This document shows, in pieces, positions 2,761-62,819 of a stretch of DNA of 64,000 nucleotides. The DNA comes from Euglena gracilis (Eukaryota). Position 1 is the first letter of the stretch. Every line of letters begins with the position of its first letter. Below the pieces are notes generated by a model. That model was given only the letters and a program-made list of their open reading frames with translations, made no database searches and was not told the origin of the DNA. Made by a program: the position numbers and the translations under genes. The stretch lies in NCBI GenBank assembly GCA_039621445.1, contig CP154954.1, positions 8,930,634 through 8,994,633 of the forward strand. Reading direction: 5' to 3'.

Positions 2761-3538
2761 TCACTAAAATTGTCATAATTTTGTGACTCAACAAGAAAAG
2801 TGCATTCCCGGCCGTCTAAGAAACACGCGGTGTGGAAGTATCCCCAAGGTCCAACCAACAAAATGTTCGTGTGTAACACGCCAAATTTTTTCCAGGTCCC
2901 CCCCCCCAAGGTTACAACCCTCGGGGCCAAACTAACAGCAGCAGTTTAAGCAGCTTCTGAACCAGCACAAAGAATCAAATCCTGACGGAAAATGCAGTAA
3001 CTGCAAAGACGTGCAGGAGAAAACCAAACCACCAATGCTGGCCTTCCACTGTTCCGTTCTTTAACCCGCTGGATTGTGCGCTTGGGGGGAATCTACCTTT
3101 AGAAGTGAAATTGCCAAAAAAAGTTGCCCCCCCCCCCCATTTGCAAACCCCCCAAGGGACCAACAAAAGGACGATATGAAACCCCCCAGGAAGAAAAGTG
3201 AAAAACGCTGGGGACAATTTTTTTGGCCCCAAACCACCGAAAAACTTGATTTTTGGCAATTTTCATGAGACCAACCACCATGAATTTGGGGAGAAGTGCA
3301 GAGCAAGGACCCCGTCCAGACACTGGTCCAGCCAGTTTTGGAAACCCCAGCCTCGCACAGAAGCCCCTGTCCGTCTCAGCTCCAACAACACAAGGAGAAA
3401 CCTTCACCAAAGTTTGCCCATGCACCCAATAAGGTCCCCCCTGATATTTCCACCAAAATACAAAAAAATCGGGCTTCTATTGAGGGGGGGGGCTAACTGC
3501 ATCCTGCTGCAAATTCTGTGTCAAATGCCTGTTCTGGC

Positions 3539-3798
3539 CAGGGTTTTTTTAGTCGTGGACCCCGGGGGGGGGGGGGGGTGGGTGGGTCCGGCCGAGCCCC
3601 CCGGGGGGGGGGGGTCCCCGGGAGGGGGGTGGGATATACTTTTCGGCGCCGAAGGCGCCGAAAAACTGCTATTTTTAGCACTTTTCGCGATTTTTCGGCC
3701 ATTTTTTTGTGGGTCCCCGGGGACCCCCCCCCCCGGGGCCCCCCCCAGGGGGTGGGTGGGTGGGGGGACCCCCCCCTCCAGTCTTAAAAAAACCCCTG
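3539..3798. mobile_element. hAT-like MITE, family A
   Basis: TIR CAGGGTTTTTT/AAAAAACCCCTG; 8-bp TSD GTTCTGGC/GTTGTGGC; body shared with 49775-50042. Confidence 0.85.
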
Positions 3799-4144
3799 GT
3801 TGTGGCCATGACAGAACCGTCCAAACTCGGGAGCGGAGTGTGGTCGCAAATGCGGGCTTTGCTGGGGATGCCAGAGGGTGGTTTTTGGCCCAAACAAACA
3901 ACCGTAAACCCCTCATTTGTAACCCCCCGGGCTTACAGGTCAGCAGGGCTGTGTAGGAATCCCCGCAACCCCATGGGGGGTTGGGGGGTCGACCACCCCC
4001 CCCACCACCTCCCTCCTGGTGGATGGGGGGGGGGTCCGACCACCCTATTCACCACCACCAGCCCTGTGGGGTCGGCCGAAAGGGAGGTCATACTTTTTTG
4101 GAATGGTGATCAAAATCTGACCCTCCAAATCCCTCCCGATGCAT

Positions 4145-4166
4145 TTACCCTCCCCCCCCCCTCCAG
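4145..4166 (+). promoter_or_regulatory. Probable spliced-leader trans-splice acceptor of the SDR gene
   Basis: Polypyrimidine tract ending in CAG (4164-4166) two bases before the ATG. SL trans-splicing is established for euglenozoans. Confidence 0.55.
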
Positions 4167-4168
4167 CC

Positions 4169-12507
<8,339 letters not shown>

Positions 12508-13907: not shown

Positions 13908-13909
<2 letters not shown>

Positions 13910-13991
<82 letters not shown>

Positions 13992-14010
13992 ACGCACGCA
14001 CACACACACT
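13910..14010. repeat. (CA)n microsatellite
   Basis: Directly visible; similar tracts at 6710-6900, 7280-7440, 9555-9785, 38886-38940 and 43073-43350. Confidence 0.95.
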
Positions 14011-14490
14011 TTGTCAACGTCCTTGGATCGTCGTTGTGTCTAGGACAGGGTGGGGTGTCCAGTTTGGGAAATCATTTTTGTAAACCTCGAACCTTGTTGG
14101 GGCAGGGAAAAAAACATAAACAAAAATAATTTGCAACTTTCCAAACATTGAGAACACTTTGTTCTACTTGTTCTGTTGGAACATTTGTGGTATGTCATTA
14201 AAAAAATTACTGAAAAAAATCTGACAAAAACGTTGGTCACAAACGAAAAAAAATGAAAACCAAAATGGGAATTACTCCTAGTGGAAAACATTTCCAAGCA
14301 GAACTTGTGACAGGAAGAAAGAAGCACAAAAAATAAATGAGCACTAATGAGCACAAACCCTAGAAAAATCAAGAAGGCAAAAATGCTTAAAAACACGTGC
14401 ATTATTTCCTTCCCCTCCCTGTAAAATGGTAAAAGATTGCTAATGAGAACCTGATTTCAATTGCAATTCGACCAGCTTCTCCATGACAAC

Positions 14491-24043: not shown

Positions 24044-24756
24044 CTAAAAGAAAAAATATGTTGTTGTCAATTCATCCCGGTATGTCCCACACCCTCCCCA
24101 CACATCCCCCCACGGTGCCCGCACTTAAGTGTGGTATTGTTCAGCGGAATGGTTAAGTGTGTTAGTTAAGTGTGAACGGAATTGTTAAGTTAGTTAAGTG
24201 TGGAATTGTTCAGGGGAGGGGGGAGTTAGCCAGCCCAAAGTTTCCAGCCTCTGAGCTGGACCTGGGGGGGGGGGGGATTAACCCTCCCATTTGAGTGCAC
24301 GTTTTTTTGACCGCATTTTCGGGTCCTCAGGGGGGCGAAATTATTAGCGACTGCCTGAAATCAGTTCAGTGTGAACTGATTTTATTGCGGTGGGGGCGTT
24401 TTCGGGCTTCGTTTTTCGGGTGCTCACAGGTGTAACACGACACCATTTGGGCACCGCGCATTGAAATGGGGAGGGCAGGGCTGTATCGGAATCCCCACAA
24501 CTCTATGGGTGGTGGGTGGGGAAGGTCTAACCCCCCCCTCCAGGCTTTCCCGTATTTCCACGAGCACCGATTTTTGGGTCAAATCTTCACCGCCGAAAGG
24601 ATTTGTGCGGGTGGTGTGGTGGGTGGAGAGGGTCGACCCACCCCCGGTGGGGATGGGGTCGACCCCCGCCCACGAGGCCTTCCCGCACAGCCCTGGGGGG
24701 GGTACCGGAATAAACTCACGCCTGCTTCACACATGAAGCTTCACGCCGGACCCGCC

Positions 24757-24791
24757 CCCCTCCCTCCCGTGCGCCATTTCTGTTCCCGCAG
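24757..24791 (+). promoter_or_regulatory. Probable SL trans-splice acceptor of fucosyltransferase-like gene
   Basis: Pyrimidine-rich tract ending ...TTCCCGCAG (AG 24790-24791), 14 nt upstream of ATG 24806. Confidence 0.5.
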
Positions 24792-24805
24792 CCCCGCCCC
24801 ACCCC

Positions 24806-43717
<18,912 letters not shown>

Positions 43718-46309: not shown

Positions 46310-46339
46310 ACATCATCAACAGCAGCATCAGCATCATGG

Positions 46340-46371
<32 letters not shown>

Positions 46372-46449
46372 GTAAGTGTAATCATAATCATAATCATAAT
46401 CATAATCATAATCACAATCATAATCACAATCATAATCATAATCATAATC

Positions 46450-46525
<76 letters not shown>
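46310..46525. repeat. Compound (ATC)n-(ATAATC)n-(ACA)n microsatellite
   Basis: Directly visible. Confidence 0.93.
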
Positions 46526-46526
<1 letters not shown>

Positions 46527-48759
46527 CGAATCGATCAACATGACAATAGTCATCGAATCGATCGAATCGATCAACATGATAATAGCTATCATCATGGGAA
46601 TCGGGGTTAGGTGCATTTTCTTTAGTCGAATATGCCAATCTAATTCAGCTTAAATCCATCTCGACCTGGATTTCGGCAGAGTTCCACAATTTCCCCCTCT
46701 GCAGAGCTTGTTGTGGTGATGGTTTTTGATTGATTCGTTCAAACACCGCTTCGATATGGCTTTTGAGTATGCCCTTCTTTGAGCAACGATGAATTCTCTC
46801 CCTCTCCGCCTTTTTTTCACCGTGTGTGGGTGAAACAGAGTATGCACCAAAACCTCTAAATGTGTTGATAGTGTTCATTTTGTTCATGAGTTTCATCATT
46901 AGATTAGTCGGACAGTTTTCATTTGCAAAACATTTTCGTGGAAGATCTGGCAACAGATCCTCAGGCAACAATGGGCTTGGGAGAGTTTTGTAAATACAGC
47001 CTGATAAGTAGTTTCATCCAAACTTGTGTGAGAGAAACTGAAGCATTGCCAAGCCCAAGAAACAAAGCCCCAATCCCCTTGGAGGAGGGCAGTCCTTCCT
47101 ACCCATTGCCCCCCACCCCCCCCCCCACAGTCGCGCACATGAATACATGCATGCATGTGTGCGTGCGGCCTTTTGTGCCGAAGCTGACACATTCACACAA
47201 TCGCATAAAATCTGCCCAGAGCCTCGTGCGGTTTCACTTCTCATGGATTCAAGGCCGCGATTGGACAGTTCAAGTTTTTGTGGGAGAGGGGTATATTTTC
47301 CGGGAAGATCATTCTCCAGGTATCAATATGTTAACCCCTCCCCTGAATCGAAGCCCGGGGTCGGCCAGTGACTAAGTGATTGAATGACATGTAGACCCAC
47401 AAAGAAATTTCTTCGATAATTCTCAGACGCTCTGTTTTTCGACCACTTTTGCGAGTAGTGCACCCCCCCCCGAATAGAAGTCCCCCAGCCCCCCCTCAGT
47501 TTTCGACCAACGTTCCAACGAATAATAGTCCCCGGGCCCCCCCCCCAGGGTGGGTGACTGGTTTTTTCAGAGTGACTGGTTTTTGGCCCGGACCCCCTCC
47601 TCCCCGGGGGGGGGGTCGGAAAAAAACTACTAAAGTGACCCGGCGCCGAAGGTGCTTTTTTTCATGTTTTTGGTCAAATTTCTTTTGGATTCCAGAGTGG
47701 CCGACCCCCCGGGGGGGGGGGGGGGTAGTGACTGGCTGGTTTCCCAAGAAAAGTGATTGACTGGTTTTTCGAAGAGTAGAGTGACCCCCCTCCCCCCCGG
47801 GGGTTGGTAAAAAATTGAATGCTACATGTCCTACCTTTCCAAACCATGTCAAATTTGCTGCAAATGTTGCTCTTGTGGATGCATTGGATCATTAAACGTA
47901 AAACCACCCAACCCTCATTTAACCAATGGCTGAAGAAGCCAAAGCACTTGCCGTCTCAATTGACAGACAACCCACGGGTAGGGCCTATTATTCGAGAGGG
48001 GTGGCACTATTTGGAACGTTGGTCGAAAAACGAGGGGGAGGCTTCTATTTGGGGGGGTTGTACATTTTTGGAGGTTCTGATCCAATACCACCAATTCTTG
48101 GCGAAATTCCAGCTGGGAACGATTTCTTCTACTCTATTGCCAAAACGCCACAAAATGAAAATGTTCAAGGGGTTTTCTCATTCCATGGTGGCTGTGCAGC
48201 ATGTGGACACCAGATGTTTTTTTTAAGTTTACTGACGCGGGGGGACCCCACCAAAGGTTTTTTTAGGGCCTGGGGGGACCCACTTTTGGCATCAGTTTTG
48301 GGGTCCAAAATTGATGGGTTCCCATTTGGTGGGGGTACGTTGTTCGCCCCAAAAGAAGTTATTACTGGGAGAGGGTTTTTCTTTGGGGGGGGGTGGAAAC
48401 CTACTCCCTCACCCCCCTGGTTTGTTTCTAATTTGGAAGTCAGATAGAAAAAAGGTGAATGCGAGTCGCGAAGAGACTGTATCCGACAAAGTGGCGGAAA
48501 GCAGAAAAGAAAAAATCTTTGATTTTTGAAAAGATAAACTGTCAGCCATAAAATTTGGGAACACAAATTTCCTGGAAGCCAAGTCTCGCGTGGGTGGGCA
48601 GGGAATTTCGGGGCCCAATACCGAGGCCTGGGCCTACATCCCTTTCACCCCTGTGCGACCCCAGCCCCCTCGGGGGGATGGAAAGTGGGTGGGTGGGTTT
48701 GGGCTTCCCCAGGCCAGCACCCCCATAGCTCCCCCAAATGGCCAAAATTGGCTTAAGAT

Positions 48760-49160
48760 GCTTTTTTGACCCCCCTATAGATGGGGATCCCTAAAATGGC
48801 CTAAAATGGCCCAAAATGACCTAAAACGGGAAGAATTCTGCTGCGCAACTTTTTTTTCTGTGAACAATCGAAGTCCTTCAGGTGAGGATATCCAGTGGCT
48901 TTTGTGTATGTAAGCGGCAAACGGTGGATTTGGCGGACGATGGTGGAAGAGCACAGACCCACAAGGCTTTTTTTTTTATATCCCAAGTAATGATTACGTC
49001 CTGAAAATCCATAATCCCCAACCATCTCACCCGCTTGTGTGCTAATTGCTTATGATGCCTGTTTCAATGCAATGCATTTATAGCAAAAATGGCCTAATAT
49101 GGCCTAAATGGGATTAAAGTGGTCTAAAACGGCCTAAAACAGCCTAAAAATGTCCTAGAA
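48760..49160. repeat. Paralog of the element hosting the DIRS (empty-site copy)
   Basis: Aligns with 56170-56321 followed directly by 60857-60940; contains GGCCTAAAAT repeats. Confidence 0.8.
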
Positions 49161-49774
49161 AACTTTTTGCAGCATGAAAATAATTTTTTTGTTATCTATT
49201 AATGTTATTGCCATGTGTGGACACCTGAAATGATTTTTTGACCCATTGAAGACGTTATACAGGTTGAATGGTGCAAATGGCAAATGATTGTAACTTCTGG
49301 TAGGGTGGGGATCCCATGCTCTTGGCTTCAGCAAACCTCTCCAGCAAAAACCTCAGCCGAGGCAACTGGAATTATAAATTAAAAAGTGAAAAGATTGTGA
49401 TTGCTTGAAAAGATTGTGATTTCACGCATTTCACCTCCATTTGGGTAATATTCGATTTTCACATTCGGAGCAATTGTCCCATTATGCATCGATTTTTGAA
49501 GTTTTTGAAGTTTTTGAGTTGGGAAAATACAAAGTTTGGTATCAATGCTGTTGGATTTCTTCAGAAAAGGGTTTTTGTATTCATCGTTTTACCTGTCTTT
49601 TTAGCATTTTGTCCAACATTTTTCGAGTTTTTTTTTCCTGTGATAAATCCTAACCCCCCCCCCGAAAAATGGCCCATGGGGTTATTATTCGGACACTCGA
49701 TTGAAATCTCAGGGGGGCTATTATTCGGGGGGCTACTGTTTGGATTTTTTTTTACGGAAAATGGGCCCCCCTGC

Positions 49775-50042
49775 CAGCGAGTTGTTTTAGGCCTGGACCC
49801 CCGGGGGGGAGGGGGGGGGGGGAGGGGGGGCGGTTCCGGCCGAGCCCCCCCCCCCCGGGGGGGTCCCCCCGGAGGGGGGTGGGATATACTTTTCGGCCGA
49901 ATTTTTTTTGAAAAAGCGCTATTTTTAGCATTTTTCGTGATTTTTTTGTGGGTCCCCCCGGCCCCCCCCCCCGGCCCCCCCAGGGGGCGGGTGGGTGGGT
50001 GGGGGGGGCCCCTCCCCGCCGGTCTTGGAAAAAAAACCCCTG
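49775..50042. mobile_element. hAT-like MITE, family A (second copy)
   Basis: CAG...CCCCTG termini; perfect 8-bp TSD CCCCCTGC; internal GGGATATACTTTTCGGC...CTATTTTTAGCA shared with 3539-3798. Confidence 0.88.
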
Positions 50043-50128
50043 CCCCCTGCAGAAATGCCCTCAAAATGCCTATTCCCCTTCTTTAAAGGACCCTCCTGTC
50101 AAGATGAGTGAGTGGTTTTTGTGTGCAA

Positions 50129-53100
50129 GTGACTGGAGCAGTCACAATACCTCCATTTGACCCCAACTCCCCGAGTGGGTACTTTCGACTCTGCCATTTT
50201 GCCAAGGTGAGTTTTCAAATGTTGAGCCGGGGGAGAGGGGGTTCCCCCTGGGGGGCATCCCCAAGAGCCCTGTCGGTCCTTGCTGGAGGCAGGTCTTTGG
50301 CCCTAAATTCAGCGCCGAAATTGACCCCAAAATTGCCCCCCCCCCAAGGGGTTTGGGGATACCCCTGCATGGTTGGGGGGACCACCCCCAGGTCTTAAAG
50401 AAAATCCCGGTGGGTTCGGACTTTCACCTCCAAATTTTGGCTGAAGAATTCCAACCCAGGTGGTGGATTTGGGATATTTGTGCCAGTTTCCGGAGACGAT
50501 TCGGGTCTAGGCCCAGGAGCTAGTGGGCCCCACCGCTCTTGGGGGGCAGCTCCTGTTTCCAACTGGCTGGCTGCCCCCCCCCATGGGGGGTCTTTAAATT
50601 GTCCCCTGGTTGTGACTGCAAAATGAGCGTTGTTCATTCCTCTTCACCTTGGGGGACGGCGAAGTTGGGGTAGCCTGGCGCAGCTGGGCTGAGGTTAAAA
50701 AAAAAAACGTTCTTGTTCTGGTACGAAGTGCTTCTTTGGGGGAAGCGGCACAAAAGACCACAAATGGTGTTTTTTGAGTATTTTCTTTTTTTGAGTTTTT
50801 TTGTTTCTCCAGTTGAAAAATGCCAACCCAGCTGTGTTTGGGTTTCCCCTTTTTTCGTGTACCAAGTCCAGCTTGACAGCCAGTGACCCTTGATTCTTGT
50901 TCATCAAAGAAAAATTTTATGTTCACCAAATTTTATATTCACCACTTTGTGAACCCACTGAATGAGGTTCTGGTCAAGGTGTGACCTCCTAAGGCATTAT
51001 TTTTGACAAAGCAGTGGCATTCACACCCGGCATTCCCACCGTGTTCCTTGAAACAACCGACAACGAGCCAAAAGAACCAGTGGCCCAAAATGATCACGGT
51101 TGTTAGTGTGTTCATTGTGTGCACCAAGCAGGACGACGTGCTGTGGAGTGTTTCCACGTGTCACATGTGAACTCTTTGCAGCAGGGCGCACTGCTGGGGA
51201 GTACAGGGTGGGTCAACAAACAAAGAGCCCTGAAGGAGTCTGGAGTGTGAAAAAGTGCCCATATAATAAAGTTATTTTGGAAACAGGGGAGGTCTGGGAG
51301 TGCCAACCCACCCCGTTTGGATGAGACCATATTTGAAGACTGTGGATACAAATTTTGAATTTTTCCATTTCAGATGTCGTAAAAATTCCTTTCTTGAGTC
51401 ATCCCCCCCAACTCCCAAACGAGCCCCCCCCCCCAAGGACTCATTTGGTGCCTGCCTCCAACCGCCTTCGGCGCCAAGGCTTATTTTTTCTGTACGTCTT
51501 TTGGTTAAGCCAGCCCCAGCGGGGTCTTAGAAAGAACGTGTTTGTCAGTGTGTTGCAAGTGGGATTCGATGCTTTTCGCTTGTGGGAAGTGCTTTTCTGC
51601 TTTCAGGTCATCAGCCATCTCCAAGGAGCTGCCACTCATGCGGGCACGTTGCTTTGAGTCAGACTTGTGGCGACAGGTGCAATGACGGAAAGAGCAGTCA
51701 GTTGCCATCGAGCAGACACTTTGTCACTGCTGAGGGATTTTAGTTCACACCCATGTGTAAGCATGGATGAATATGGATGGATGATGGATTGCAAACATCA
51801 AATGTATAACATCTTGAATTGTACATATGTATATATATTATGTATATATGTGTATCATGTGTATATATTATATTATTGTCTATATATTATGTATATGTAT
51901 TATGTGCATAAATGTTAATAAACATATACGTATACCCACATATAAGTATATAAGTATATATATATATATATTGAGTATCAGAAATTCTTTATTGTATGAT
52001 CGCATCTTATTGTATCCTGCATATGCCCATTCGTTCGTCCTCTGTGTTCCTTGCCTCCTTGCGACCAGAACTTGGAGCGCAAGCAGGCCCGTGTTGTGAG
52101 CGGAGAGAAGCCGCCGGCGGTGCAGTGGGTGCACAAGACGTCGAAGCACCAGGCTGTCACGGAGCCTCGCGGGACGATCATCAACGAGATGCGAGTGCTC
52201 CGGCAGGGGCCGGAGCTGTTGCGCCGCGAAACCCAGGTGGAATATGTTCTAGTTCTACAATTCATTTGAAGTCGGAGACGATGAATTGCTAGAAGTGATA
52301 CTGCTTCCATTTATGTTTTTTTAAGCCCTGAGGTGAAGTCAAGCTTCGGACCACCTGGTCGTTGACCACTGGTCAATGGTTTGGTGGTTGGGTGTGTGTC
52401 ATTGCCCTTCCTGGGTTTCTGTCATTCTTTTTTTTTGTTTGGACCAACTTTTTTTTGCCCAGCCAACTTTTTTTTTTTAGGGAGTGGTTTGCGTATGTAA
52501 TAGAGCCAAGTAAATCAACGAAACAAAGGAACCATAGTAAATAGGGCACTCTCTGGTTTCCGCATGTTGAGTTCTTATCCCCCGCTTTTTCCTTCCTTGA
52601 TCCACTGGTCGACCGATGTATTTTGAAGAGATCTTTCTGAAATGACAGACGGAGGGCGACTTTTTGCGTTGGCTTTGCTCCTCAACTCTCTTTTCCGATG
52701 GTTTGATTGAAAGTGAGCCTGCTGTCCACACCAGAGCCAGTGGCTTTCTGGCGGCAAGCCAATATGTTGGAGGGATATTAATGGGAAGCGGTGGTGTGAA
52801 ATTTATTGGCATTTCACACCATTTGGGCACCGCGCTAAATGGGGGGGTTAGAATATCACAGGCTTTTTAAAGGAAGGCTACGCCTTTTTAACCCGGAAGC
52901 TGTCATGGGCAGGCAGGAAGGAATGCATTTTCGAGGGGTGTGTTTGGGGTGGGTGGGAAGTGCCATAGCACTCCCCCCCTGCAAATGCCCGAAGTGAAGA
53001 CCAAAACAGCGCGCACCCCCCACTGTACGCTTTCGGGTGATGCCCAAATAAGTGCTGAGGGTTCAAAACGGTCCAATAATGTGCGCACCCTGTGCACCCA

Positions 53101-54075
53101 ACCAACTGTCACAACACCCCCTTCTGCTGTAGGCCATGCTTTCCCAAGCGATTATCCACATGCTGGGGTGGGTGTGAGGGGGGGGGGGGGTCCCAGTTCG
53201 TGCCATTACTTCGATTATTGGCATGCAATGCAAGCTCCGATTATAAGCATGCCCCAGCCAACTCCAGCCAATTCCTTCAAATGACTTGTCCTGATTCTGC
53301 TCCGCAGGAAAAAAGAGACGTCCAGCGGCAAGTTGAAGAACGGAGGCAGCAAGCAGCGGTGTGCTTCCATCGATGACCCAGTCAGTTTTTGCGAAGACGG
53401 AGAGCACCCTGAAACGTTTTTTTGTGGTGGATCATTTCTTGGTGTGTATGTTATTTTCCTAAGTCTCAAACCCTCCTGTTGTACAGAGCCTCGCCCCCAA
53501 TTGAGGACCATTCAGGAGCATCCAAATCCTGATTGTGGCACCATCTCCTCATTTATCTGACAATGGAAAGGAGAGGAAAGGAAAAGAAATGGGGCTAAGA
53601 AATCGGGCTTGCAGGTTGGAGTGTAATGTTGGGCGAATGACAGAAACGGGGGAACCAACAATAAAAGAAAGCCCTCCTGTTTTCTGCCCCAATTTGTGTC
53701 TTTTGCTTTTTGAGGGAACAATCTTTGGGGAAAATCCAATTTTTCAATTTCAATTTTTCATTCACTGTTTTTGGAATCCCTTTTTTGTGCACCACACATC
53801 TTGTCCCTGGTCCATCAGGGGACGGTCAACTTTCGACGGAAGTTTCAACGCACTTGGGGGAGGGCGTTTCTTTTGTGGTTTTATTTCTGGCTTTATTTTG
53901 TTTATTTATGGCTATTTAAACGGTCATTGAGCCGTTGGACTCACCTCCCGGAGTTGTCTTCCCCGCCAGTTGTCTTCCGCCGTGTTACCTGTGCCATTGT
54001 ATTTCTGGCTGCCACGCAGTACGAAGCCCCCAAGTGGCGGCTCTTTGAGGGCCGGCTGGACTTTGCGGAGCGGCC
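50129..54075 (+). CDS. Multi-exon gene, hypothetical protein (partial; GT-AG introns)
   Basis: Phase-consistent GT-AG chain ~50129-50206, 51182-51207, 51607-51676, 52069-52236, 53308-53358, 54020-~54075 gives ..PPFDPNSPSGYFRLCHFAK-QGALLGSTG-SSAISKELPLMRARCFESDLWRQ-NLERKQARVVSGEKPP...LRRETQ-EKRDVQRQVEERRQQAA-YEAPKWRLFEGRLDFAERP. Further upstream exons are likely in 46600-49400. No recognisable domain. Confidence 0.6.
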
Positions 54076-54752
54076 TGCGCCCCACGCTGCCCCCGCAGCC
54101 AGCAGCCTCCCAGCCATATGTTCACAGCCCCCCCCCCCCCCTGGGGGGGATGGGAGTTTACGAGAGTGGGTGGGTTTGGGTCGCTAGACCCCCTCCCCCA
54201 AGGGTGGGGGGGGGGGGGGGCGCTGTGGCCGGAGGCAGGTTTGGCCTGAAAACTTTAAAAACATTTTTGGCTGGTTTCGGTGTGGATGGATTTAAAAAAA
54301 AATGGGTGGTGGGTTTTGGTGCGAAAAAAGTGCCCACCCCTCGCTGAGTGAATCTATGCACCCGGCGCCGCACGCGTGCGCGTTTGCCACCAGCAAAGGG
54401 CTGGCTCCCTCCCTGCCGCCAATCAACCGGATGGAGCACGCTTGATCCACCTCACCTCTCCAACCTCCTCTCCAACCGCTCCCCCTTTTTTCCCTCTCCC
54501 TCCTGTCCGTCTGTTTGTGCTTCTCACATTTTGGCTCCCCTTTTTTTCTTTCCAACCTTGTGAACCACCTGTCTGTATCATTCTATTTTCTTCGCTTTCT
54601 CTCAACAGGTCGAAGCAAAACCGAGCCATGTTAGGGAGGGTAGGCTGTTTCTTTTGTCAGAAATTTTGGTAGGTTTTGAATGACGGGCACGAACATTTGC
54701 AGTTTTCCTGCCCACAAAAAGAAAAGTGGCAAAACTGTGCCACCCTCCTGGG

Positions 54753-55868
54753 CAGGCACCTGTGGCCGACCAGGGCCGACCAGGGCCGACCAGGGCCGAC
54801 CAGGGCCGACCAGGGCCGACTATGATTTTCAGGACCCCCGTAGGTGGGGGTTCCGACCAGGGCCGACCAGGGCCGACCAGGGCCGACCAGGGCCGACCAG
54901 GGCCGACCAGGGCCGACCAGGGCCGACCAGGGCCGACTTGCATGTGATTGGCCGACCGAAGGGGAATGGATGAAGGACTTAGGCAGCTTTCCCTCTGAAC
55001 CAAGCTCCTTTGATGATGCTGGGCGGTGCTGGGCGATGCAGGACGATGCTGGCCCGGCAGCATCGACCGCGGGTTACCGCGGGTTTCAGGACTGTCATAG
55101 GTGGGTTGCCGACCGCAGCCGACCGCAGCCGACCGTGCAACTTTTTTTCTGATTGATGTCATTTTTTCAGTGAGAATGAGGAATTTCATCCCAGATTTTG
55201 AGATTTTTCTGGCTCGTCTGTTCTTCGTCGGCACTTTGGCTACTTTTGGCTACTTTTGGCCGCTTTTGGCCACTTTAGGTCGCTTTTGTCCCTTTTGGCC
55301 CATTTGTCACCATAATTCACCAATTTCGATCTATTTTGACCATTTTTTTTGCCACTTTTTGCGCACTTGTTGTAAGTTTGGGCCATTTTGTCCTGCTCTG
55401 GGGCCATTTTTGACCATTTATAGCCATTTTCGACCTTTTTTTTGTTTATTTTGCCCATTTTTTTGGTCTCTTTTTGGTCCAATTTGACCATTTTTGAGCA
55501 TTTTGTGCCAGTATATTGTATATTTTGAAGAACTCAACCCATTTTTGGATAATTTCCCCACAAATCTCCAGTTTTACACCCATTTTGGCCATTACGGATC
55601 AGTTTTTGCTAACTTGGGGGCCATTTGTCACTGATTTGGCAAATATTGGGCTAATTTGGGTCAATGTGAGCATATTTTATGGCATTTTGGCCATTTTACG
55701 CCCTTTTGGTAATTTTGGGCCATTTTTCACAATCTTTTTTTTCTGTGACGATACCCCCACCTATGGCCGACTATTTGCCGACCAGGGCCGACCAGGGCCG
55801 ACCAGGGCCGACCAGGGCCGACCAGGGCCGACCAGAGCACCAAAATGGGAAGTGACCATAGGAGCCTT
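54753..55868. mobile_element. hAT-like non-autonomous element with (GGCCGACCAG)n subterminal arrays
   Basis: Perfect 8-bp TSD CTCCTGGG (54745-52, 55869-76); imperfect TIR CAGGCACCTGTGG/CCATAGGAGCCTT; decamer arrays at 54764-54820, 54853-54937 and 55777-55835. Confidence 0.85.
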
Positions 55869-56611
55869 CTCCTGGGGAGTGGGGGGGAGCCAAAAACCAG
55901 CCAGTTACCCTGGAAAAAAAACAAATTCAGTCACGTCGGCTAGGTGGTTGCGGGATGGGCAGCTTTTATCAAAAAAAAATTCACACCAAAATGATGGTGT
56001 GAACAATGAATGAACTTTGAAAAGTTCACAAATGAACTTTGAAAAAAATGGCCGAGAAGGTTCAAGTCTGTTCTCCAAACCCAAGGGGGGGATTTGGCCA
56101 TTCTCGGTCACCTGGCACCAGGCACCTATGGCTAAAATGGCCTAAAATGGCCTAAAATGGTCTGAAATGAATTTTTGACCACCTATAGGTGGGGGTCCCT
56201 AAAATGGCCTAAAAAGGCCTAAAATGGCTTAAAATGGGAAAAATTCTGCTGCACAACAGTTTTTTTTGTGAATAAATAAAGCCATTCAGGTAATGACTTT
56301 CGGTATCTTTCGTTAATGTAGGACACCTCGGGCTCCGCACTTTGCCCTTGTGAGGCCATGCCTTGCTCGCCGGCGGTGTTGTCTGGATTGTTCTTGTTCG
56401 CTGGGTTAGGAGTCCCTGCTTAGTGCCTTTTTTCGCCGGAGTTGGCTGATTCCTAAATTGCCCTTCGACACCCAGAAGAAAGGAACCTCAAGTACCTCAC
56501 CAATTGAGAGAAGAAGAAGACAATCAATCAATACAAACTATCCAGAATTTCACGCTCGTGCAGAAATTCAAATCAAAACTTGTTGAATTTTTCGAAAGAA
56601 TTCAATGAAAG

Positions 56612-59116
56612 ATGCAACTTCAAAGAAGCACAGCGCTGGAGAACTTCAAGAGGCAGCAGCAGCAGAAGCTGGACAACCTGACGGCGCAGGTCAACTGTGG
56701 CGAGCCGTGGCTGCCCCTTCCCCAAAACAAATTTCCCCCACAGAAATTTCCAGAACCCAAACCCCCCAAAGGGATGGCCACGGACCCTGGCAGACAGTGG
56801 TCAGAAGACCCCGAAAGGGGCAGAAGCAACAACCAGCAGGCCACTACGGCCATTGGAGCCAGGGCCACTGGGGCCAACGTTATGCCACTTACACCAATAC
56901 CTTGTTCAAGCTGGGCCAGGGCGGCCACAACAGCAAACTGGGCCAGGGCGGCCACAACAGCAATGGCCATGGCGGCCGATGGAACAAAGGCCAGGGTGGC
57001 CAACAATACCAAGGCCAGGGTGGCCAATTCCACAAACAAATGCCCAATGGCAGGGGCAGGACAGGTCCACAACACCCCCCCAGCCATTTCTTCATCACAA
57101 ACCCCATCAGGGGAAAAGGATTGGCCCCCAGAGGCCCCCCAAGATTATCAATGGGCATGGTGCCCAAGATCAAAGAGAAATCAATGGGGACTTTCAAAAT
57201 CTCAAGAAGGCCAGTGGGGCCAACATCAAAAGGGCCAGTGGGGCCAGAATTATTATCAAGGCCACTGGGGCCATCGAATATCAGAAGGGGAGAACCCCCA
57301 GAAGCTAAAGGGCTGTCCCCCAGCAGGGGATTCCAATATTTTATTCCAGTGGCAGCCTCAGGAGGATGCCCCAGAAGGGGCTATGGAGGACAAGGGGGCA
57401 ACCCCCCCTCAAGTTTATTCTTCAGTGCCCATGGCAGGGGCAAATCACAACAAGGGGGAGACCCAAAAAGGGGCCCCTATGGTATGTCAATCGACAACAA
57501 CAATGACAAAGTGGAGGATCAGAGAGACTGTGAGCAGAGCATGCACACCCCCCCAGCCACCTTTGCAAAATGCTCAATTCACTTCAGAGGTGCAATGTCC
57601 AACACCCCTCACCCAGCCCCCAGAAAATCATCTGGTTGGGAAAATAAATTACATGGAGGAAAAATGGGGAGACACCCCCCTGTACCAGAGACTTCAGAAA
57701 AGTCTAAAATGGTGGACAAAAAATGCCCCCCCAGCAACATGTCAACTGATCAAGAATGGAATTCAGCCCCCCTGGGTAAATCCCCCAAAATTGTCCACCC
57801 ACCCAAAGCCCAGGGCCAACCTGGACCTGAACCAGGCAGAAGAAATTCTGCTGGATTACGAAAAATCTGGGTCAGTGAAACGAGTTTGGGATTCAGACAC
57901 CCAGCATTTGATCCTATGGTTTTTAATTTCAAAAACAGAAGGGGGAACAACCAAATGGAGAATGATCAGCGACTGCAGAGAAATAAATCAGCAGTTTCAA
58001 GTAAAACCCTTCAAGTTGGATCATATCCAACACATTTTTCCAGTTTTGGAAAAAGGCCACTGGGCAGCAAAAATAGACCTAAAAGATGCCTATTTTCATA
58101 TTCCAGTAAGTCCAGGCCTAAGGCCATTTTTAAGGCATCAGGTGGGGGGGCAGACCTGGGAATTTCAAACAGGCTGCTTTGGGCTAAATGTAATGCCCCA
58201 AATTTTCATGTCAGTGATGAAAACATTCGAGAAACTGTGGAGAAAAAGGGGCATCCAGGTATTTATTTACCTGGACGACATTTTACTGGTGGCCCCCACC
58301 CAAAATATTTTCCAACATCACCTGAAAACAGTTGTCAAAGATTTGCTGGATTCTGGATTCAAAATCAATGTGAAAAAGTCCACCCTGCAGCCCACACAAG
58401 TGGTAACCCATCTGGGGTTTCAACTGAACTTCCAGGAAGGAAAACTACAGGTGCCCCCCCAGAAAGTCAAAACCATAAAAAAGGAGCTGGGAAAAATTGT
58501 GAAAAAAGATTACATGTCAAAAAGGCAATTGGCTGCCATTTTGGGCCAAATACGATGCAACCTAATGGCCCTGCCCTTTTTAAGGGCTTTTACAGACACC
58601 CTGGCAAAATTTTTGGTGGCAAAGTCCACAGCCCCCTGGGACTCAAAACACCCCATTTCCCAGGAAATCAAGGCCCAATTAAGGGAAATAAAAATTCTGC
58701 TGGACACCTGGGGGGGCAGACCCTTCCCACAAAATGCAACCAGAGTGTTGCACTCAGACAGCAGCACCCATGCTTGGGGGGGGCTGGACATCCACACAGG
58801 AGAAATTGTGCAGGACTTCTGGAGAAAAGACTCCATTTTGCACATCAATGTAAAGGAGCTCAGTGCAGCAATCAGCACTGTGAAAAGTTTGAGCAAACCT
58901 GGGGAAACCGTTTCCTTATCAGTGGACAACCAGGTAATTTACTTTTACCTGACAAAAGGTGGGGGCAGAAAGGACCCCTTCAACAAAATGCTAAGACCAT
59001 TTTTCAAGTGGTGCATGGAGCACCAAGTAAACCTCCAAGTCAACTGGGTACCTTCAAAAGAATGCCTGGCAGACCCCATCAGCAGATGGGAAATGGACAG
59101 GGGGGATTATTCTTTG
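56612..59116 (+). CDS. DIRS reverse transcriptase/RNase H (upstream Gly/Gln-rich gag-like part)
   Basis: KWRMISDCREIN, KIDLKDAYFHIPV, CFGLNVMP, YLDDILL, THLGF; RNase H HSDSS...HINVKEL...SVDNQ...ADPISR. The pol frame is broken by a 1-nt insertion at ~59117. Confidence 0.92.
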
Positions 59117-59117
59117 A

Positions 59118-59609
59118 GACCCCCAACTTTTTCAATGGCTCAGACAGCAGTTCAAACAATTCATAAATTTGGAAACAGATTTATTTGCCTCCCCAGGCAA
59201 CAAAAAACTGCCCAATTTTGTGGCCAGGTGGCCCCACTGGGATGCCACAGCAGTAAATGCACTGCAATGTCCACTGGACAACATGGGGGATCTTTATGCA
59301 AACCCCCCCTGGTCAATAATTCACCAATTTCTACCCAGGTTGAAAATGTTTCCCCAGACCAAAGTTTTTATGGTCACCCCCTACTGGGTTTCAGCCACCT
59401 GGTGGCCCCAATTAATAAAAACGAAAGTTCCAGGGACCCCCTGCCTGAAAATCACCCCCTACAAGGGCATGTTCACCAACTGCAGGGGAGAACAAATGCC
59501 ACCCCCCAGGTGGCCCCTGGTTTGCATGATTTGCTCAGGCAAATTTTGGAGGGGAAACAAATTCAGGTTGAGACCATTAACGATTTCCTGGGGAGAAACC
59601 CCAGTTTAA
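59118..59609 (+). CDS. DIRS Dam-like DNA N6-adenine methyltransferase domain (normally C-terminal to RT/RH)
   Basis: DPQLFQWLRQQF...ETDLFASPGNKKL...YANPPWSII...VTPYWVSATWWPQL. DLFAS and NPPW motifs are present. Confidence 0.85.
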   Translation, partial: DPQLFQWLRQQFKQFINLETDLFASPGNKKLPNFVARWPHWDATAVNALQCPLDNMGDLYANPPWSIIHQFLPRLKMFPQTKVFMVTPYWVSATWWPQLIKTKVPGTPCLKITPYKGMFTNCRGEQMPPPRWPLVCMICSGKFWRGNKFRLRPLTISWGETPV

Positions 59610-60450
59610 AGCGTTATCAGAGTGCTTTTGCACTTCTGTGGGTCATTTTGGAACACATGGGGGTGCCCCCCCTGAAGCCACCACTGACCAAGTGGCTGAC
59701 GCTTTAATTCAATTATTCAAGTTTTCCAAGGCCCAAGCCCGTAATGCCTACAGTGCTATGCTTTTGATTCCTGGGTTTGGTGGGCTGAGATTCCACACTC
59801 TGTTGACCCCCTACAAGAGGCTTTGGAACCAAAATCTTGAGAAGTATGGGGCATTTTGGGATCCCCTCCCAATCCTCCTGGGGCTGGCAAAGGCGCCTAT
59901 GCCCACTGATATTTGTACATTGCGTACACAACTTATTTTTTGCTCACGAATCCTCTGTTTATACCGATCCTCCGACTTATCGCAAGTCAAGCGAACCACA
60001 AGTGTGTTGGGTAGGGCACCCTACATCAAGATTAAGCGTAAAGGACAGAAATTCCATAAGTGGGAAAGGGTTGTGTCCATTCCCCAATGTCCCCAAATCA
60101 GCCCCTTTCATTTAATGATGTGTTATGTGGCTGCTACACGCTTATTCGTCAGACCTGGGGGTCCCCTCCTAATTTCCTTAAAACCACCCTTCAGGGCCAT
60201 AAGTGCAGACACCATTGCTTCCATCACAAACGCATTTTTGGCCCAACATGGGGTATCCCCCCAGGTGTGGGGGGCCCACTTCACCAGAGGGGCAGGATTT
60301 GGTCTACTCAAAAATTGGGCCTTCCCGCCCAAGAAGTTTGTTAACTTGGTCAGTAGTGGGTGGTGGAGGATTTTACAGCCCATTACCAAAGACTGGGTGC
60401 CCAAGGTGCCCTGGAAAATGCCCTGGCCCCCCTAATTTCAGTGCACAATC
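59520..60450 (+). pseudogene. DIRS tyrosine recombinase (frameshifts and stops)
   Basis: N-domain LHDLLRQILEGK...SLKRYQSAF; catalytic LYRSSDL, KRKG, GAHFTRGAG; C-terminal LGLPAQEVC*LGQ*WVVEDFTAHY in a shifted frame. Frameshifts at the C-run ~59670 and A-run ~60312; stops at ~60342 and ~60354. Confidence 0.85.
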
Positions 60451-62819
60451 AGGCCTCACAAGGGCAAAGTGCGGAGCCCGAGGTGTCTCGTACTCCCTCG
60501 AGGAAAACCGACCAGGGAGGAAGGGACACCGAGGGCGAAGCACAAAGACCTTGTGAGCCCGACCCCCCCCCACCCGTAAAAGAAAATTTGTGTTCAAAAG
60601 CCCTCGGTCAGACAGTGGGGGCCAGGGGGGGGGGGAGGGGGGGGGACACCCCCCAGGGGCAAAAAGCCACGCCGCCCAGTCGGAGCAGCATCGTCAGCCA
60701 ACTCCGGCGAGGCGGCACTAAGCAGGGACTCCTAACCCAGCGAACAAGAACAATCCAGACAACACCGCCGGCGAGCAAGGCATGGCCTCACAAGGTCTTT
60801 GTGCTTCGCCCTCGGTGTCCCTTCCTCCCTGGTCGGTTTTCCTCGAGGGAGTACGAATGGCAAACAGTGGATTTGGTGGAGGAGCACAGCCCCACAAGGC
60901 CATTTTTTTATCCCAACTAATAATGGTATCAGTCCCCAACCTTCTTTTGATTGCTGAATTCTGAAGGATTGTGGGTAGTACGATGTCTGTTTTGCAAATA
61001 ATGAAATAGTGCAAATTTGGAAGCATGGGGAAAAAGAAAGAAAAATAAGATGAAAGATGCTGGAAAAATCCCAATTGAGAGATGGGTATGCTCATTCGTC
61101 ACCCGGGATTCCTTCGAACCAGCACAATTTCGGGTATTTTCCAAAACCACAAATAGTCATGCCGAATGATCAAATGACCCAAACAACCAACCACAAACAA
61201 ATTTGAATGAGATTCTCTGCTGTTTAGGTTTTCTTTTTAGTATTAAGTTTCCCCAAAGGGGAAAACAAACACGGAGAAGAGGAATTGCTCTCAGCTTTGC
61301 CCTTTGATCTGTGCCATCCTCTCTCATTTATGCCAAAAAAGGCTATGCCAAATGCCAAATGGCTAAAACAATGCCAAAATCAAATTGAATTTCAGCAACA
61401 GCATCATCTTTCAGAAAAAATGACTTCTTTTGGGAAATCCCGCAAAGTGCTGTAGATTTCACAAAATACATAAACCAGGCCACAAATAAAAAAATTTAAT
61501 ATTTGTCCGACGCTTTTTTTCTGAACAATCTTTCATTGCCGAAAATTCTTACTGTTCAGAATTCCTCTATGGGCGTGCATTAAGATTTGTTGAGCTTCCC
61601 ATGGTTTTGATCCAGTGTTCATGAATGTTGCATGTTTCTTTGGATGTACATTTCTGATCACCGAATAAGAGAAGTTTGCACACGTTATGATACAGTTTTC
61701 GGGACAAAAATGATGCAAAAGTATGATTTTCAGACCCCACGTATCTTTGTATACCTGCATACAAATGGCCTAAAATGGCCTCCAATGGCCTAAAATGCCC
61801 TAAAATGGGAAGTTTTGGGCTTGACTATAGGTGCCTGCCCGGCACCTTCGGGGCTGGGGGTATGCAAAACTCCAAAATCTGATCCCCCCGTGCCCCCCAT
61901 AGCACCCCTAGGGGCGTTGTGGGGCTAGGTGCTATCTTCCTTAAAAAGAGGCCTGGTGATCACCCTGGGTTCCAAAATCACCTGGAAATAAAATTAATAC
62001 ATACATAAGTTACATCTGTAACGCATACATGCACACACACACACACATACACAACAAATACACATAATATTTCTGTACATCCATTCATTTAAAAATCATT
62101 AAAAGTTTTTTTTCTGGAGACCTGTGTCCCAAATTTTCAGCAAGGAAAGTGGGAGGAGTCTTGCTTGATATTTTAATTGAAACTCGAGGGGAATATTTTG
62201 AATTAACAGATGGATGCACAACAATATACAACTTTCTAATTTGTTGCATATTGTTATTCATGCATGCGCATGCCCCATTCATTTACAAGAACACACAAAA
62301 AATGCACCATTATGTTGTATTGTAATGTTATAATGAAATAATATGTTGTTTTATTTATTATTCATATAATATTCTTACAAAATGTGATATTATCTATTGA
62401 AATGTGTGCACATATTTTTTAATTGTATTATATTATTATTATTAATACATATAAAATTAATGTTATGTTTTTCATGCATTGTGCTATATAATAACTTTTT
62501 ATAAGGGTCATGGCCCCCAAATCCCCCCTACCCCAATTTTTTTTGTCCAACGATGTTTTTTTTGGCCTCCCAGACCCCTACCCCAATTGTTTTTGCCCAG
62601 AAGGATGTTTATTGGTCTTCCGGACCCGGAAAACATGTTTCTGAGCCGAAAATGGGCGGTTTTTTTAAACCCCCCAGAACCCCGTTTTTGGCCCAAAACC
62701 CTTGGTGTTTGGGTCAAAAAAAAGTGGGGGACAGCATAAATTTTTTTGTCCAACGATGTTTTTATTGCCTACCAGACCCGGAATCGGACTGCCACGACAG
62801 AGGAAGGGGGGAGGAAGGA

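Follow-up and report, generated by a model that had tools for sequence, protein, structure and literature searches.

A MITE origin of the nonconventional (NC) introns of euglenids was proposed in 2014 by Milanowski et al. (PMC3935182; this and the other PMC papers are cited from the sections of them that were available), so that the proposal predates the present analysis, and the first-pass annotation of this DNA was right that a transposon origin had been put forward before. The idea is the same as the one considered below: in PMC3935182, PMC11282704 and PMC12501133, pairing of CAG with CTG at positions +4 to +6 and −8 to −6 is read as a TIR, direct repeats at the junctions are taken as TSD-like, and a dedicated removal pathway is held to make exonic insertions tolerable. 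The available sections of these three papers name neither a TSD length, nor a superfamily, nor a link from 3+5 to 8, and a connection of NC introns with 8-bp TSDs or hAT elements was not found in the literature searched; in 2025 the origins of NC introns were said to 'remain unclear' (PMC12501133). According to the same source, NC splicing in Euglena places one cut 3 nt 5' of CAG and the other 5 (in some cases 6) nt 3' of CTG; knock-in experiments, among them some with synthetic 50-nt introns, tested this code (5'-N3CDG...CHGN5-6|R), to which 61.2% of the NC introns of E. agilis conform. A junction with 'eight nucleotide direct repeats' is described for a strain-specific, recently gained intron of E. 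agilis gapC, and a pyrimidine|purine rule applies at both intron junctions (PMC4770533).

Several related systems offer points of comparison. The introners of Micromonas, Aureococcus, dinoflagellates and other lineages are likewise MITE-like DNA transposons whose insertion gives rise to an intron, and their TSD helps to define the splice boundary, as modelled for the Euglena MITEs; introners are, however, removed by the spliceosome, in Micromonas with one GT/GC or AG from the element and the other from a 3-bp TSD (PMC11282704), whereas removal in the Euglena model would be non-spliceosomal and structure-measured, with the TSD giving both spacers. As to introner membership, no intron copy of the Euglena MITE groups was found in the window, the 64,000-nucleotide stretch of Euglena gracilis DNA analysed here. 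In Fritillaria borealis and Amoebophrya, noncanonical introns derived from MITEs also carry a TIR and TSD at their ends and are tolerated by the host splicing, but are held to be excised by an adapted spliceosome, while another mechanism is assumed for the NC introns of euglenids (PMC11282704). The Merlin elements of Euglena gracilis are euglenid DNA transposons with 8-bp TSDs as well, though their TIRs start with GG and measure at least 24 nt (PMC8101967), in contrast to the CAG starts and 9–13 nt seen here. Non-autonomous hAT elements share with the present MITEs the 8-bp TSD, short CAG-type TIRs and subterminal repeats (the last in group C), but no transposase was found in the window and the hAT target consensus is not matched. 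Giroux, in 1994, reportedly described maize Ds as an intron (cited in PMC3935182), so that splicing of a hAT element out of an exon has a precedent. Maize Ds is spliced imprecisely, at cryptic spliceosomal sites, in contrast to the exact exon restoration that the Euglena model predicts.

The first-pass annotation had listed five elements with CAG...CTG ends (one with CTT) between 8-bp direct repeats, and direct reading confirmed the positions, ends and flanks of all five (E1–E5). Three further elements brought the total to eight, in three TIR groups, and a degenerate fragment was also found:

3539–3798, unstranded: MITE E1, group A, 260 bp; start CAGGGTTTTTTT, end CCCCTG; TSD at 3531–3538 and 3799–3806, GTTCTGGC/GTTGTGGC, 7/8 identical; 371 nt upstream of the ATG of the NmrA-like gene
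41812–42092, unstranded: MITE E2, group B, 281 bp; TIR CAGGGCTGT at both ends; flanks CTCAGTGG/CTCAGCGG, 7/8 identical
49775–50042, unstranded: MITE E3, group A, 268 bp; TSD CCCCCTGC twice, 8/8; within the 4840-nt GT-AG intron of gene G2
54753–55868, unstranded: MITE E4, group C, 1116 bp; TSD CTCCTGGG twice, 8/8; left TIR CAGGCACCTGTGG, right end with two mismatches and a CTT terminus; subterminal tandem repeats of the 10-nt unit GGCCGACCAG; start 308 nt past the G2 stop codon
56119–61837: E5, 5.7 kb, CAG...CTG; flanks CCTGGCAC/CCCGGCAC at 56111–56118 and 61838–61845, 7/8 identical
56119–56321, unstranded: left arm of the E5 shell, group C; TIR CAGGCACCTATGG, then 10-nt repeats CTAAAATGGC
56322–60858, plus strand: DIRS-like retroelement nested in E5, with an RT ORF and inverted terminal repeats
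60859–61837, unstranded: right arm of the E5 shell; end CTATAGGTGCCTG
24476–24695, unstranded: MITE B2, group B, 220 bp; TIR CAGGGCTGT at both ends; TSD GGGGAGGG/GGGGGGGT, 6/8, G-rich; left ~100 nt homologous to E2
3944–4066, unstranded: MITE B3, group B, 123 bp; start CAGGGCTGT, end CAGCCCTG; an old copy, as its flanks agree at 3/8 only; 103 nt before the start codon of the NmrA-like gene
1063–1604, unstranded: candidate element B4?, 542 bp; start CAGGGCTGT, end GTG; TIR 9/12; TSD TTTCGCTC, 8/8; group assignment uncertain
48714–48883, unstranded: degenerate group C fragment, 82% identical to 56145–56291

Structure alone is weak evidence for such elements, as the window holds 137 CAG...CTG cases with 8-mer flanks matching at 7/8 or better, and a 7-nt TIR seed combined with a 7/8 TSD occurred 35 times compared to 16–31 times in 20 Markov shuffles. 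The homology of E1 and E3 runs exactly from CAG to CTG between unrelated flanks, while the core of E2 (41891–42080) has a 96% paralogue at 45011–45201 that is devoid of the E2 termini. The E2 terminus CAGGGCTGT occurs six times against 0.66 expected, a count reached in 0 of 100 shuffles, and defines two complete copies besides E2. The four group C termini are matched by CAGGCACCTATGG, with at most one mismatch at 54753, 56119 and 61825 (minus strand) and with two at 55856 (minus strand). Across the eight elements, flank identity was 54/64 compared to a permuted mean of 20.1 (sd 3.3, maximum 31, 14,833 derangements), and it stood out at k=8 only (0.84, against 0.27–0.44 at k=4–7 and 9–12). DNA contig depth reached 1.0e5 in the E3 bin and 4.5e5–8.9e5 in the E4 bins, compared to 84–135 in single-copy bins, a difference of 10^3 to 10^4 times. 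Pfam gave no match in ORFs 54602–55249 (over E4) and 55498–56013 (beside E4) or in one ORF spanning E2, and RVT_1, in E5, was the only match among the ORFs tested. The elements are thus genuine MITEs, non-autonomous, non-coding DNA transposons of the cut-and-paste type with TIRs and 8-bp TSDs, which form three TIR groups and reach very high copy numbers in this euglenid nuclear genome.

E5 had been taken for a single 5.7-kb element, of which the 8-bp-flanked MITE shell held up and the one-piece structure did not, since a DIRS-like retroelement is nested inside. The latter contains an ORF at 56609–59707 with RVT_1 (Pfam, E 3e-22), inverted terminal repeats at 56321–56427 and 60714–60820 (107 nt, 92% complementary) and an internal complementary region at 60452–60560; a downstream ORF (59581–60435) resembles eukaryotic tyrosine recombinases, as an Atlas lead only. 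Loose ends in the DNA data lie at both edges of the nested element (56322 and 60859), and six contigs of run X15 diverge immediately before 56119, the left edge of E5. The retrotransposon would have inserted later than the MITE itself.

Ten introns, nine of them NC, were mapped in two genes, which are given here together with the GT-AG introns of G2:

4169–12507, plus strand: NmrA-like gene, 10 exons, mapped with protein P0004
4270–5060, plus strand: N1, GT-AG
5142–6505, plus strand: N2, N3-CAG...CTG-N5
6658–8623, plus strand: N3, N3-CAG...CTG-N5
about 8737–9329, plus strand: N4, ambiguous
9420–9887, plus strand: N5, N3-CAG...CTG-N5
9916–10630, plus strand: N6, N3-CGA...TCG-N5
10696–11319, plus strand: N7, CAG...CTG, spacing 3+4
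11375–11799, plus strand: N8, N3-CAG...CTG-N5
11862–12405, plus strand: N9, CAG...CTG, spacing 3+6
46756–54445, plus strand: gene G2, coding for a small protein (about 150 aa)
46767–51606, 51677–52068, 52237–53307 and 53359–54019, plus strand: four GT-AG introns of G2, from RNA joints
54112–54363, plus strand: NC intron of G2, 252 nt, RNA-verified

The boundaries of eight of the nine NC introns were placed by protein-homologue alignment (51–94% identity per exon) and not by RNA. The NC intron of G2 is verified by the joint 54108>54361 (slide range 0 to +3), which was supported by 41 reads of X21, 2 reads of X24 and one X15 contig, with the joined form in 0 contigs of DNA run X1. At slide +3 the intron reads AGC-CAT...ATG-CACCC|G, with the TIR CATATGTTCAC/GTGAATCTATG (9/11) and junction 8-mers CTCCCAGC/CACCCGGC that agree at 6/8 in the predicted register.

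The MITE termini and the NC introns of both genes have the same architecture, a CAG...CTG inverted repeat whose ends can pair in RNA. End duplex energies ranged from −4.7 to −23.2 kcal/mol for the MITEs and from −9.3 to −24.2 kcal/mol for the NC introns (background −6.4, sd 3.8), and the paired ends ascribed to the non-GT-AG introns were present in 8/9. A CAG...CTG core and exact 3+5 spacing were each found in six of the nine NC introns, and both together in four; the statement that most of them are N3-CAG...CTG-N5 consequently fails when taken strictly, and holds (6/9) if CGA/TCG and CAT/ATG cores are allowed. The remaining spacings are 3+4, 3+6 and one ambiguous case, and the donor spacer is thus 3 wherever it is readable. 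That a 3-nt and a 5-nt spacer add up to one 8-bp TSD is arithmetically correct and agrees with the knock-in-tested spacers (PMC12501133).

In the proposed mechanism, a MITE with short CAG-initiated TIRs would transpose through an 8-bp staggered cut. As the NC code cuts at offsets of 3 nt and 5 nt, a MITE landing in an exon would leave together with exactly one 8-bp TSD copy, and the exon would be restored; if the two junctions each derive from a copy of TSD positions 5|6, a pyrimidine|purine boundary should be seen at both. For removal, position 6 of the TSD would have to be a purine on the transcribed strand, and the stem would have to be sufficiently stable. The claim that any exonic insertion would be spliceable was overstated, since the acceptor exon must start with a purine, which 3 of 7 readable TSDs offer on the plus strand and 6 of 7 on the minus strand. 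E4 and B4? end in CTT and GTG, respectively, and each accordingly misses one core pair. In our judgement, these free-standing, high-copy, hAT-like MITEs are the most plausible source population of NC introns, though with no better than even odds; such insertions may be spliced, and existing NC introns may descend from them.

The hAT assignment of the first-pass annotation is suggested by TSD length and terminal bases: hAT termini follow the consensus YARNG, with which the CAGGG and CAGCG termini agree. The hAT target consensus is nTnnnnAn, and in this form it is fitted by 0 of 8 TSDs. Because no hAT transposase was seen in the window, the name derives from TSD length and termini, and the MITEs are best described as probably hAT-like. 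Both the absent transposase and the target mismatch would suit a mover from another 8-bp-TSD superfamily (Merlin or P-like) with the intron link intact, as would the known Merlin families of Euglena gracilis. This is nonetheless unlikely, given the fit to YARNG and the fact that Merlin TIRs all start with 5'-GG (PMC8101967), whereas 8/8 left and 7/8 right termini here, each read on its own strand, start with CA; the right end of E4 starts with AA, and moving the element boundary destroys the TSD. A different view is that these are ordinary MITEs without a causal tie to introns, the offsets being the NC enzyme's own geometry and 3+5=8 a coincidence. CAG-type starts are common in hAT-like elements, 0/8 elements are exonic, and no RNA joint skips E2, E3 or E4 among the 15 joints listed (1387 further joints exist); E3 leaves the RNA solely inside the 4840-nt GT-AG intron of G2, as judged from the RNA joints listed. 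Intron matches to a MITE family and significantly alike junction 8-mers, both looked for on the first-pass model, did not appear. None of the ten mapped introns matches any group, and the repeat matches of N1–N3 lie outside MITEs only (N2 internally at 6061–6424 with 17465–17801; 26 nt of N1 and 51 nt of N3). In the mapped NC introns, the 8-mers at the junctions agreed at 22/48 compared to 17.6 (sd 2.8; not significant, as a fraction of 0.079 reached at least this value) and, with all eight included, at 27/64 compared to 22.1 (fraction 0.083), and identity had no peak at k=8 (0.42, against 0.28–0.50 at other k). Moreover, the spacers of 3/9 introns do not sum to 8, and the published acceptor spacer is 5–6, not strictly 5 (PMC12501133). 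We nevertheless regard coincidence as rather less probable than the MITE source, as the junction repeats reported for the newly acquired gapC intron are eight nucleotides long, one Y|R rule governs both junctions, NC introns arise at new positions within species (all PMC4770533), the G2 NC intron combines 6/8 junction 8-mers with a TIR, and TIR length and pairing strength are common to MITE and intron termini.

Double-strand-break repair with filler DNA, the eight-nucleotide repeat being its fingerprint and the MITEs bystanders, is the interpretation of the authors of PMC4770533, and short junction repeats, varied in length, are common, with 84.4% of E. agilis introns described as 'slidable'. 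Repair leaves unexplained why CAG-starting terminal inverted repeats lie at fixed offsets and why the repeat is exactly as long as the TSDs of MITEs that are resident here in abundance, which makes it improbable. The opposite direction, MITEs formed from circular NC-intron RNAs that RT elements reverse-transcribed and reintegrated, is disfavoured: NC introns are reportedly released as full-length circles (cited in PMC11282704) and RT-encoding elements are very abundant here, but the copies should then contain the 3-nt and 5-nt spacers of the donor locus, yet group homology ends at CAG and CTG, and the outer 8 nt differ among copies and are duplicated at each site. We consider this origin highly improbable.

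As for the intron-generating transposon system that had been suggested, MITE identity, pairing and arithmetic stand, while no exonic, spliced or intron-family MITE was found in the window. The evidence from the window, short of proof, fits the derivation of NC introns from transposons, and what it adds to the MITE-origin hypothesis is a set of free-standing, high-copy elements with measured 8-bp TSDs.

The five free-standing elements described in the first-pass annotation, each starting with CAG and flanked by an 8-nt direct repeat, could all be read directly from the sequence at the coordinates listed below as E1 to E5. CAG stands at the claimed base in all five, and the opposite ends read CTG in four and CTT in one. 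The flanking repeat is perfect (8/8) at 49775-50042 and 54753-55868, and agrees at 7/8 positions at 3539-3798, 41812-42092 and 56119-61837. Together with further copies recognised by their termini, the elements fall into three groups:

3539-3798, E1, group A
49775-50042, E3, group A
41812-42092, E2, group B
24476-24695, B2, group B
3944-4066, B3, group B
1063-1604, B4?, candidate element, tentatively group B
54753-55868, E4, group C
56119-61837, E5, group C

The cores are CAG...CTG in 6/8 elements, E4 ending in CTT and B4? in GTG, and the duplex energy of the paired ends lies between -14 and -23 kcal/mol in seven of the eight, E3 reaching -4.7 kcal/mol.

In structure-only scans, the elements are not separable from chance. 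CAG...CTG pairs with flanks alike at at least 7/8 positions occur 137 times in the window, 14 of them with 8/8 flanks, and a 7-nt inverted seed combined with a 7/8 flank was found 35 times, compared to 16-31 times across 20 Markov shuffles. Similarly, among the 3643 CA-start TIR pairs matching at at least 9/12 positions, a TSD of at least 7/8 was seen eight times at the true offset and 0-6 times at nine control offsets. As the structure alone is not rare in the window, the case for the elements depends on family evidence. E1 and E3 can be aligned from CAG to CTG, and the flanks of the two are unrelated. The terminus of E2, CAGGGCTGT, has six occurrences compared to 0.66 expected, a number attained in none of 100 shuffles; it delimits two more complete elements, B2 and B3, and opens the candidate B4?. 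In group C, CAGGCACCTATGG forms the terminus of E5 on either side, and E4 carries it at each end with 1-2 mismatches. Finally, six contigs of run X15 match rightwards from 56119 and diverge before it, so that the boundary of the group falls precisely on the C of CAG.

Taken over all eight elements, a sample partly selected on the TSD, 54/64 flank positions are alike, while pairing the left and right flanks of different elements (14,833 derangements) gave a mean of 20.1 (sd 3.3, maximum 31). The identity is specific to length, being 0.84 at k=8 and 0.27-0.44 for all other k from 4 to 12. The three copies recognised by TIR only score 6/8, 3/8 and 8/8, the flank repeat of B3 being degenerate (3/8).

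The elements are very probably MITEs: seven of them measure 123-1116 bp, and the TIRs are 9-13 nt long. Pfam searches gave no match in two ORFs over or beside E4 or in one ORF spanning E2, and across 17 ORFs or ORF segments of the window RVT_1 was the sole match, with no DNA transposase among them; Rfam searches at gathering thresholds gave 0 matches. Groups A, B and C have 2, 3-4 and 2-3 copies, respectively, within the 64 kb, and in the genome the MITEs are highly repeated. Over 41790-61789, the contig depth of the DNA run X1 is 84-135 in single-copy bins, 1.0e5 in the E3 bin and 4.5e5-8.9e5 in the E4 bins, so that the MITE bins exceed the single-copy bins 10^3- to 10^4-fold in depth, a ratio which is not a copy number. 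Beyond the TIR, E4 and the shell of E5 have in common nothing but a subterminal arrangement of tandem 10-nt repeats with different units, and group C is thus a TIR-based grouping. A metagenome scan with a 21-nt core of group A yielded a single contig, L001, which is AT-rich, unrelated and without similarity to the window. At the E4 site, an X1 contig matches window positions 54189-54744 with 7 letter differences in 556; the match stops at 54744, the last base ahead of E4's left TSD, and the contig is 276 letters longer; a difference between strains at this site, or a repeat break, could account for this.

E5 exceeds the size of a MITE because a retroelement is nested inside it, and we read it as a MITE of ~1.2 kb with a DIRS-like insertion and not as a 5.7-kb transposon. 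An autonomous DNA transposon was ruled out, as the long ORF encodes a reverse transcriptase (RVT_1, E 3e-22). This ORF lies between 107-nt inverted terminal repeats accompanied by an internal complementary region, and DNA contigs break at 56322 and 60859. The ORF following it resembles a eukaryotic tyrosine recombinase by Atlas features only (score 0.97, 177 shared features, PF00589 on 69% of one cluster), with no match in Pfam and PDB sequence searches. The retroelement (56322-60858) is transcribed from both strands and, with a DNA contig depth of 0.65-2.0 million compared to ~100 in single-copy bins, appears to be among the most abundant repeats of the genome.

The assignment of the MITEs to a superfamily is tentative. 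The 8-bp TSD, the short TIRs and the terminal CAGGG/CAGCG, which fits YARNG, give a hAT affiliation roughly an even chance. YARNG is the terminal consensus of hAT elements, and groups A and B (CAGGG, CAGCG) fit it fully, group C (CAGGC) at 4/5 positions. The hAT target preference is nTnnnnAn, and T2 and A7 occur together in 0/8 TSDs, although as a criterion this preference carries little weight. E. gracilis is documented to have Merlin elements whose TSDs are 8 bp long (PMC8101967), and the 8-bp TSD of the MITEs described here falls within the 8-9 bp of that superfamily. Merlin TIRs, however, begin with 5'-GG (PMC8101967), whereas CA opens 8/8 left termini and 7/8 right termini of the present elements, each read on its own strand (the right end of E4 begins with AA). 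A Merlin-type TIR was ruled out, since taking GG as the element start destroys the direct repeat.

Introns were mapped in two genes. The small gene G2 was defined from RNA reads of runs X21 and X24 together with a single transcript contig of X15, and the NmrA-like gene by means of the protein homologue P0004 and a spliced-alignment script, with 51-94% identity per exon (82-94% in 8/10). The eight nonconventional (NC, non-GT-AG) boundaries of the latter were inferred from protein alignment, not from RNA. The features are as follows:

46756-54445, + strand, G2, with four GT-AG introns and one non-GT-AG intron
54112-54363, + strand, NC intron of G2 (slide +3): AGC-CAT...ATG-CACCC, then G
4169 to ~12507, + strand, NmrA-like gene, one GT-AG intron (N1) and eight non-GT-AG introns (N2-N9)
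N2, N3, N5 and N8: exact N3-CAG...CTG-N5 (spacers of 3 and 5 nt), next exon beginning with a purine
N6: same 3- and 5-nt spacing as N2, core CGA...TCG
N7: perfect 8-nt TIR (CAGATGCA), spacing 3+4
N9: spacing 3+6
N4: boundary unclear

The non-GT-AG joint of G2, 54108>54361, is carried by 41 reads of X21, 2 reads of X24 and one X15 contig, is absent from the contigs of DNA run X1, and can be slid by 0 to +3. At slide +3, the intron has a TIR of CATATGTTCAC/GTGAATCTATG (9/11) and junction 8-mers, CTCCCAGC and CACCCGGC, which are alike at 6/8 positions. It is removed from RNA at the measured offsets, yet its CAT/ATG cores fall outside the strict CDG/CHG code. Its similarity to other G/C-run repeats is weak (72-74% over 70-80 nt).

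Over the nine NC introns, CAG...CTG cores were found in 6/9 and 3+5 spacing in 6/9, with a donor spacer of 3 nt wherever it is readable. The earlier claim that most non-GT-AG introns here are N3-CAG...CTG-N5 needs correcting, 'most' amounting to 4-6 of 9. End pairing lies at -9.3 to -24.2 kcal/mol compared to -6.4 (sd 3.8) for random pairs, and GT-AG introns give -5.1 to -8.3 kcal/mol in four of five cases, the fifth, N1, reaching -19.4. With its strongly pairing ends, N1 (4270-5060) combines conventional GT-AG splice sites with a secondary structure resembling that of NC introns, and so belongs to the 'intermediate' type of the literature. N5 (9415-9892) carries a perfect 5-nt direct repeat, CCAGC, directly outside the CAG...CTG core on both sides; its length misfits an 8-bp TSD and it may be due to chance. 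G/C-homopolymer runs near termini were counted at 4/18 NC, 8/16 MITE and 0/10 conventional termini, against 8% of random 60-nt windows, which does no more than hint at a hallmark shared by MITEs and NC introns. The search for further genes was fruitless, leaving an intron sample of ten: ten long ORFs had no Pfam match, and a codon-usage scan gave candidates at 26.6 kb and 29.4 kb, of which a query with 29351-29545 returned no homologue.

Other repeats were also observed. Within the large GT-AG intron of G2, the region 47100-48100 holds dense inverted repeats rich in G/C homopolymers, with a DNA depth of 3.6e5 and 'opposite strand' joints (47386>47831) in DNA and RNA alike, suggesting a very high-copy foldback element. 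A repeat of ~340-370 bp with G/C runs occurs at 6061-6424 and 17465-17801 (84% identical), the former copy being nested in NC intron N2. In the RNA runs X21 and X24, hundreds of reads over 41790-61789 run out into long, unmatched poly-G ends where the window has G-runs (42138-42162, 47725, 54202 and 60625-60645), and RNA depth is inflated in those bins; this is probably a homopolymer sequencing or mapping artefact. A poly-T tract of 159 nt at 38618-38776 is followed by AT and TG microsatellites.

The arithmetic by which the first-pass annotation connected such elements to NC introns is correct. With a TIR abutting an 8-bp TSD, cuts placed 3 nt before CAG and 5 nt after CTG would both fall after base 5 of the TSD, and together would excise the element plus one TSD copy. 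These distances agree with the spacers established by knock-in, 3 nt (strict) on one side and 5 or, less well, 6 nt on the other (PMC12501133). The NC intron code put forward in that work, 5'-N3CDG...CHGN5-6|R, demands an acceptor exon beginning with a purine, and synthetic 50-nt introns obeying it were spliced (PMC12501133). Further agreement comes from the gapC gene of E. agilis, where an NC intron that is confined to one strain and was gained recently carries 'eight nucleotide direct repeats' at the junction, a repeat exceeding in length that of older introns, and where a pyrimidine|purine rule was described for both junctions (PMC4770533). The authors of that study interpreted the repeat as left behind by double-strand-break repair (PMC4770533); an origin by TSD predicts both the eight-nucleotide junction repeat and the pyrimidine|purine rule.

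Within the window, the interpretation that ties MITEs to introns is partly supported and the link is not demonstrated. None of the eight elements is exonic, no RNA joint skipping E2, E3 or E4 is among the 15 joints listed (there are 1387 further joints), and E3 itself lies inside a 4840-nt GT-AG intron of G2. No match was found between the ten mapped introns and MITE groups A-C, so that within these ten the groups do not resemble introner elements, whose near-identical copies form the introns of many unrelated genes. For the six introns with 3+5 spacing, junction 8-mers are alike at 22/48 positions compared to 17.6 (sd 2.8) when permuted (fraction at or above the observed value 0.079), and for all eight introns at 27/64 compared to 22.1 (0.083), with no peak at k=8 in intron junction identity. 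Since old introns are expected to lack TSDs, these junction and match results are weak evidence either way. The claim that any exonic insertion would be spliceable proved too strong, as the required purine is not supplied by every TSD and E4 and B4? have no perfect CTG. Read from seven TSDs (B3 was omitted owing to its degenerate TSD), the acceptor purine is supplied in 3/7 in + orientation and in 6/7 in - orientation.

The idea that NC introns derive from MITEs dates from 2014, in a paper which states that euglenids then had no known transposable elements (PMC3935182), and was restated in 2016 (PMC4770533), 2024 (PMC11282704) and 2025 (PMC12501133). The 2024 review depicts a TIR and TSD at the junctions (PMC11282704), and in 2025 the origins of NC introns were still called unclear (PMC12501133). 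The excerpted texts of these four accounts name no source element, TSD length or superfamily, and searches of openly readable full texts returned no paper in which hAT or an 8-bp TSD is tied to NC introns. Two things are new in the present analysis: the recognition of CAG...CTG MITEs that are free-standing, occur in high copy, have 8-bp TSDs by measurement and adjoin genes with NC introns, and the explicit reading of 3+5 as 8. Together they give quantitative form to what had been a loose hypothesis, which will not surprise the field but provides a sharp, testable mechanism.

We consider it an open bet, with neither side favoured, that MITE types like these seed NC introns by the 8-bp mechanism. 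A bolder and more doubtful possibility is that NC splicing works in effect as a removal pathway at the RNA level that is tuned to a single class of DNA transposon, and that selection fixed its 3- and 5-nt offsets so that they add up to the 8-bp staggered cut made by hAT-like MITEs. Every suitably oriented exonic insertion would then be born precisely removable, and the NC introns of Euglena, which number in the hundreds of thousands, would for the most part be fossils of insertions by such MITE families. The origin and removal mechanism of euglenid NC introns, which make up ~72% of the introns of E. agilis (PMC12501133), is a question standing since the 1990s. If the MITE families are the source, it would become directly testable with named candidate families and a published knock-in assay, and young introns would show 8/8 identity in the 5+3 junction register, with sliding of at most 8. 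If true, this would represent transposon-driven intron gain without the spliceosome, which would widen the introner concept, and would explain how the genome tolerates the massive spread of MITEs into coding sequence.
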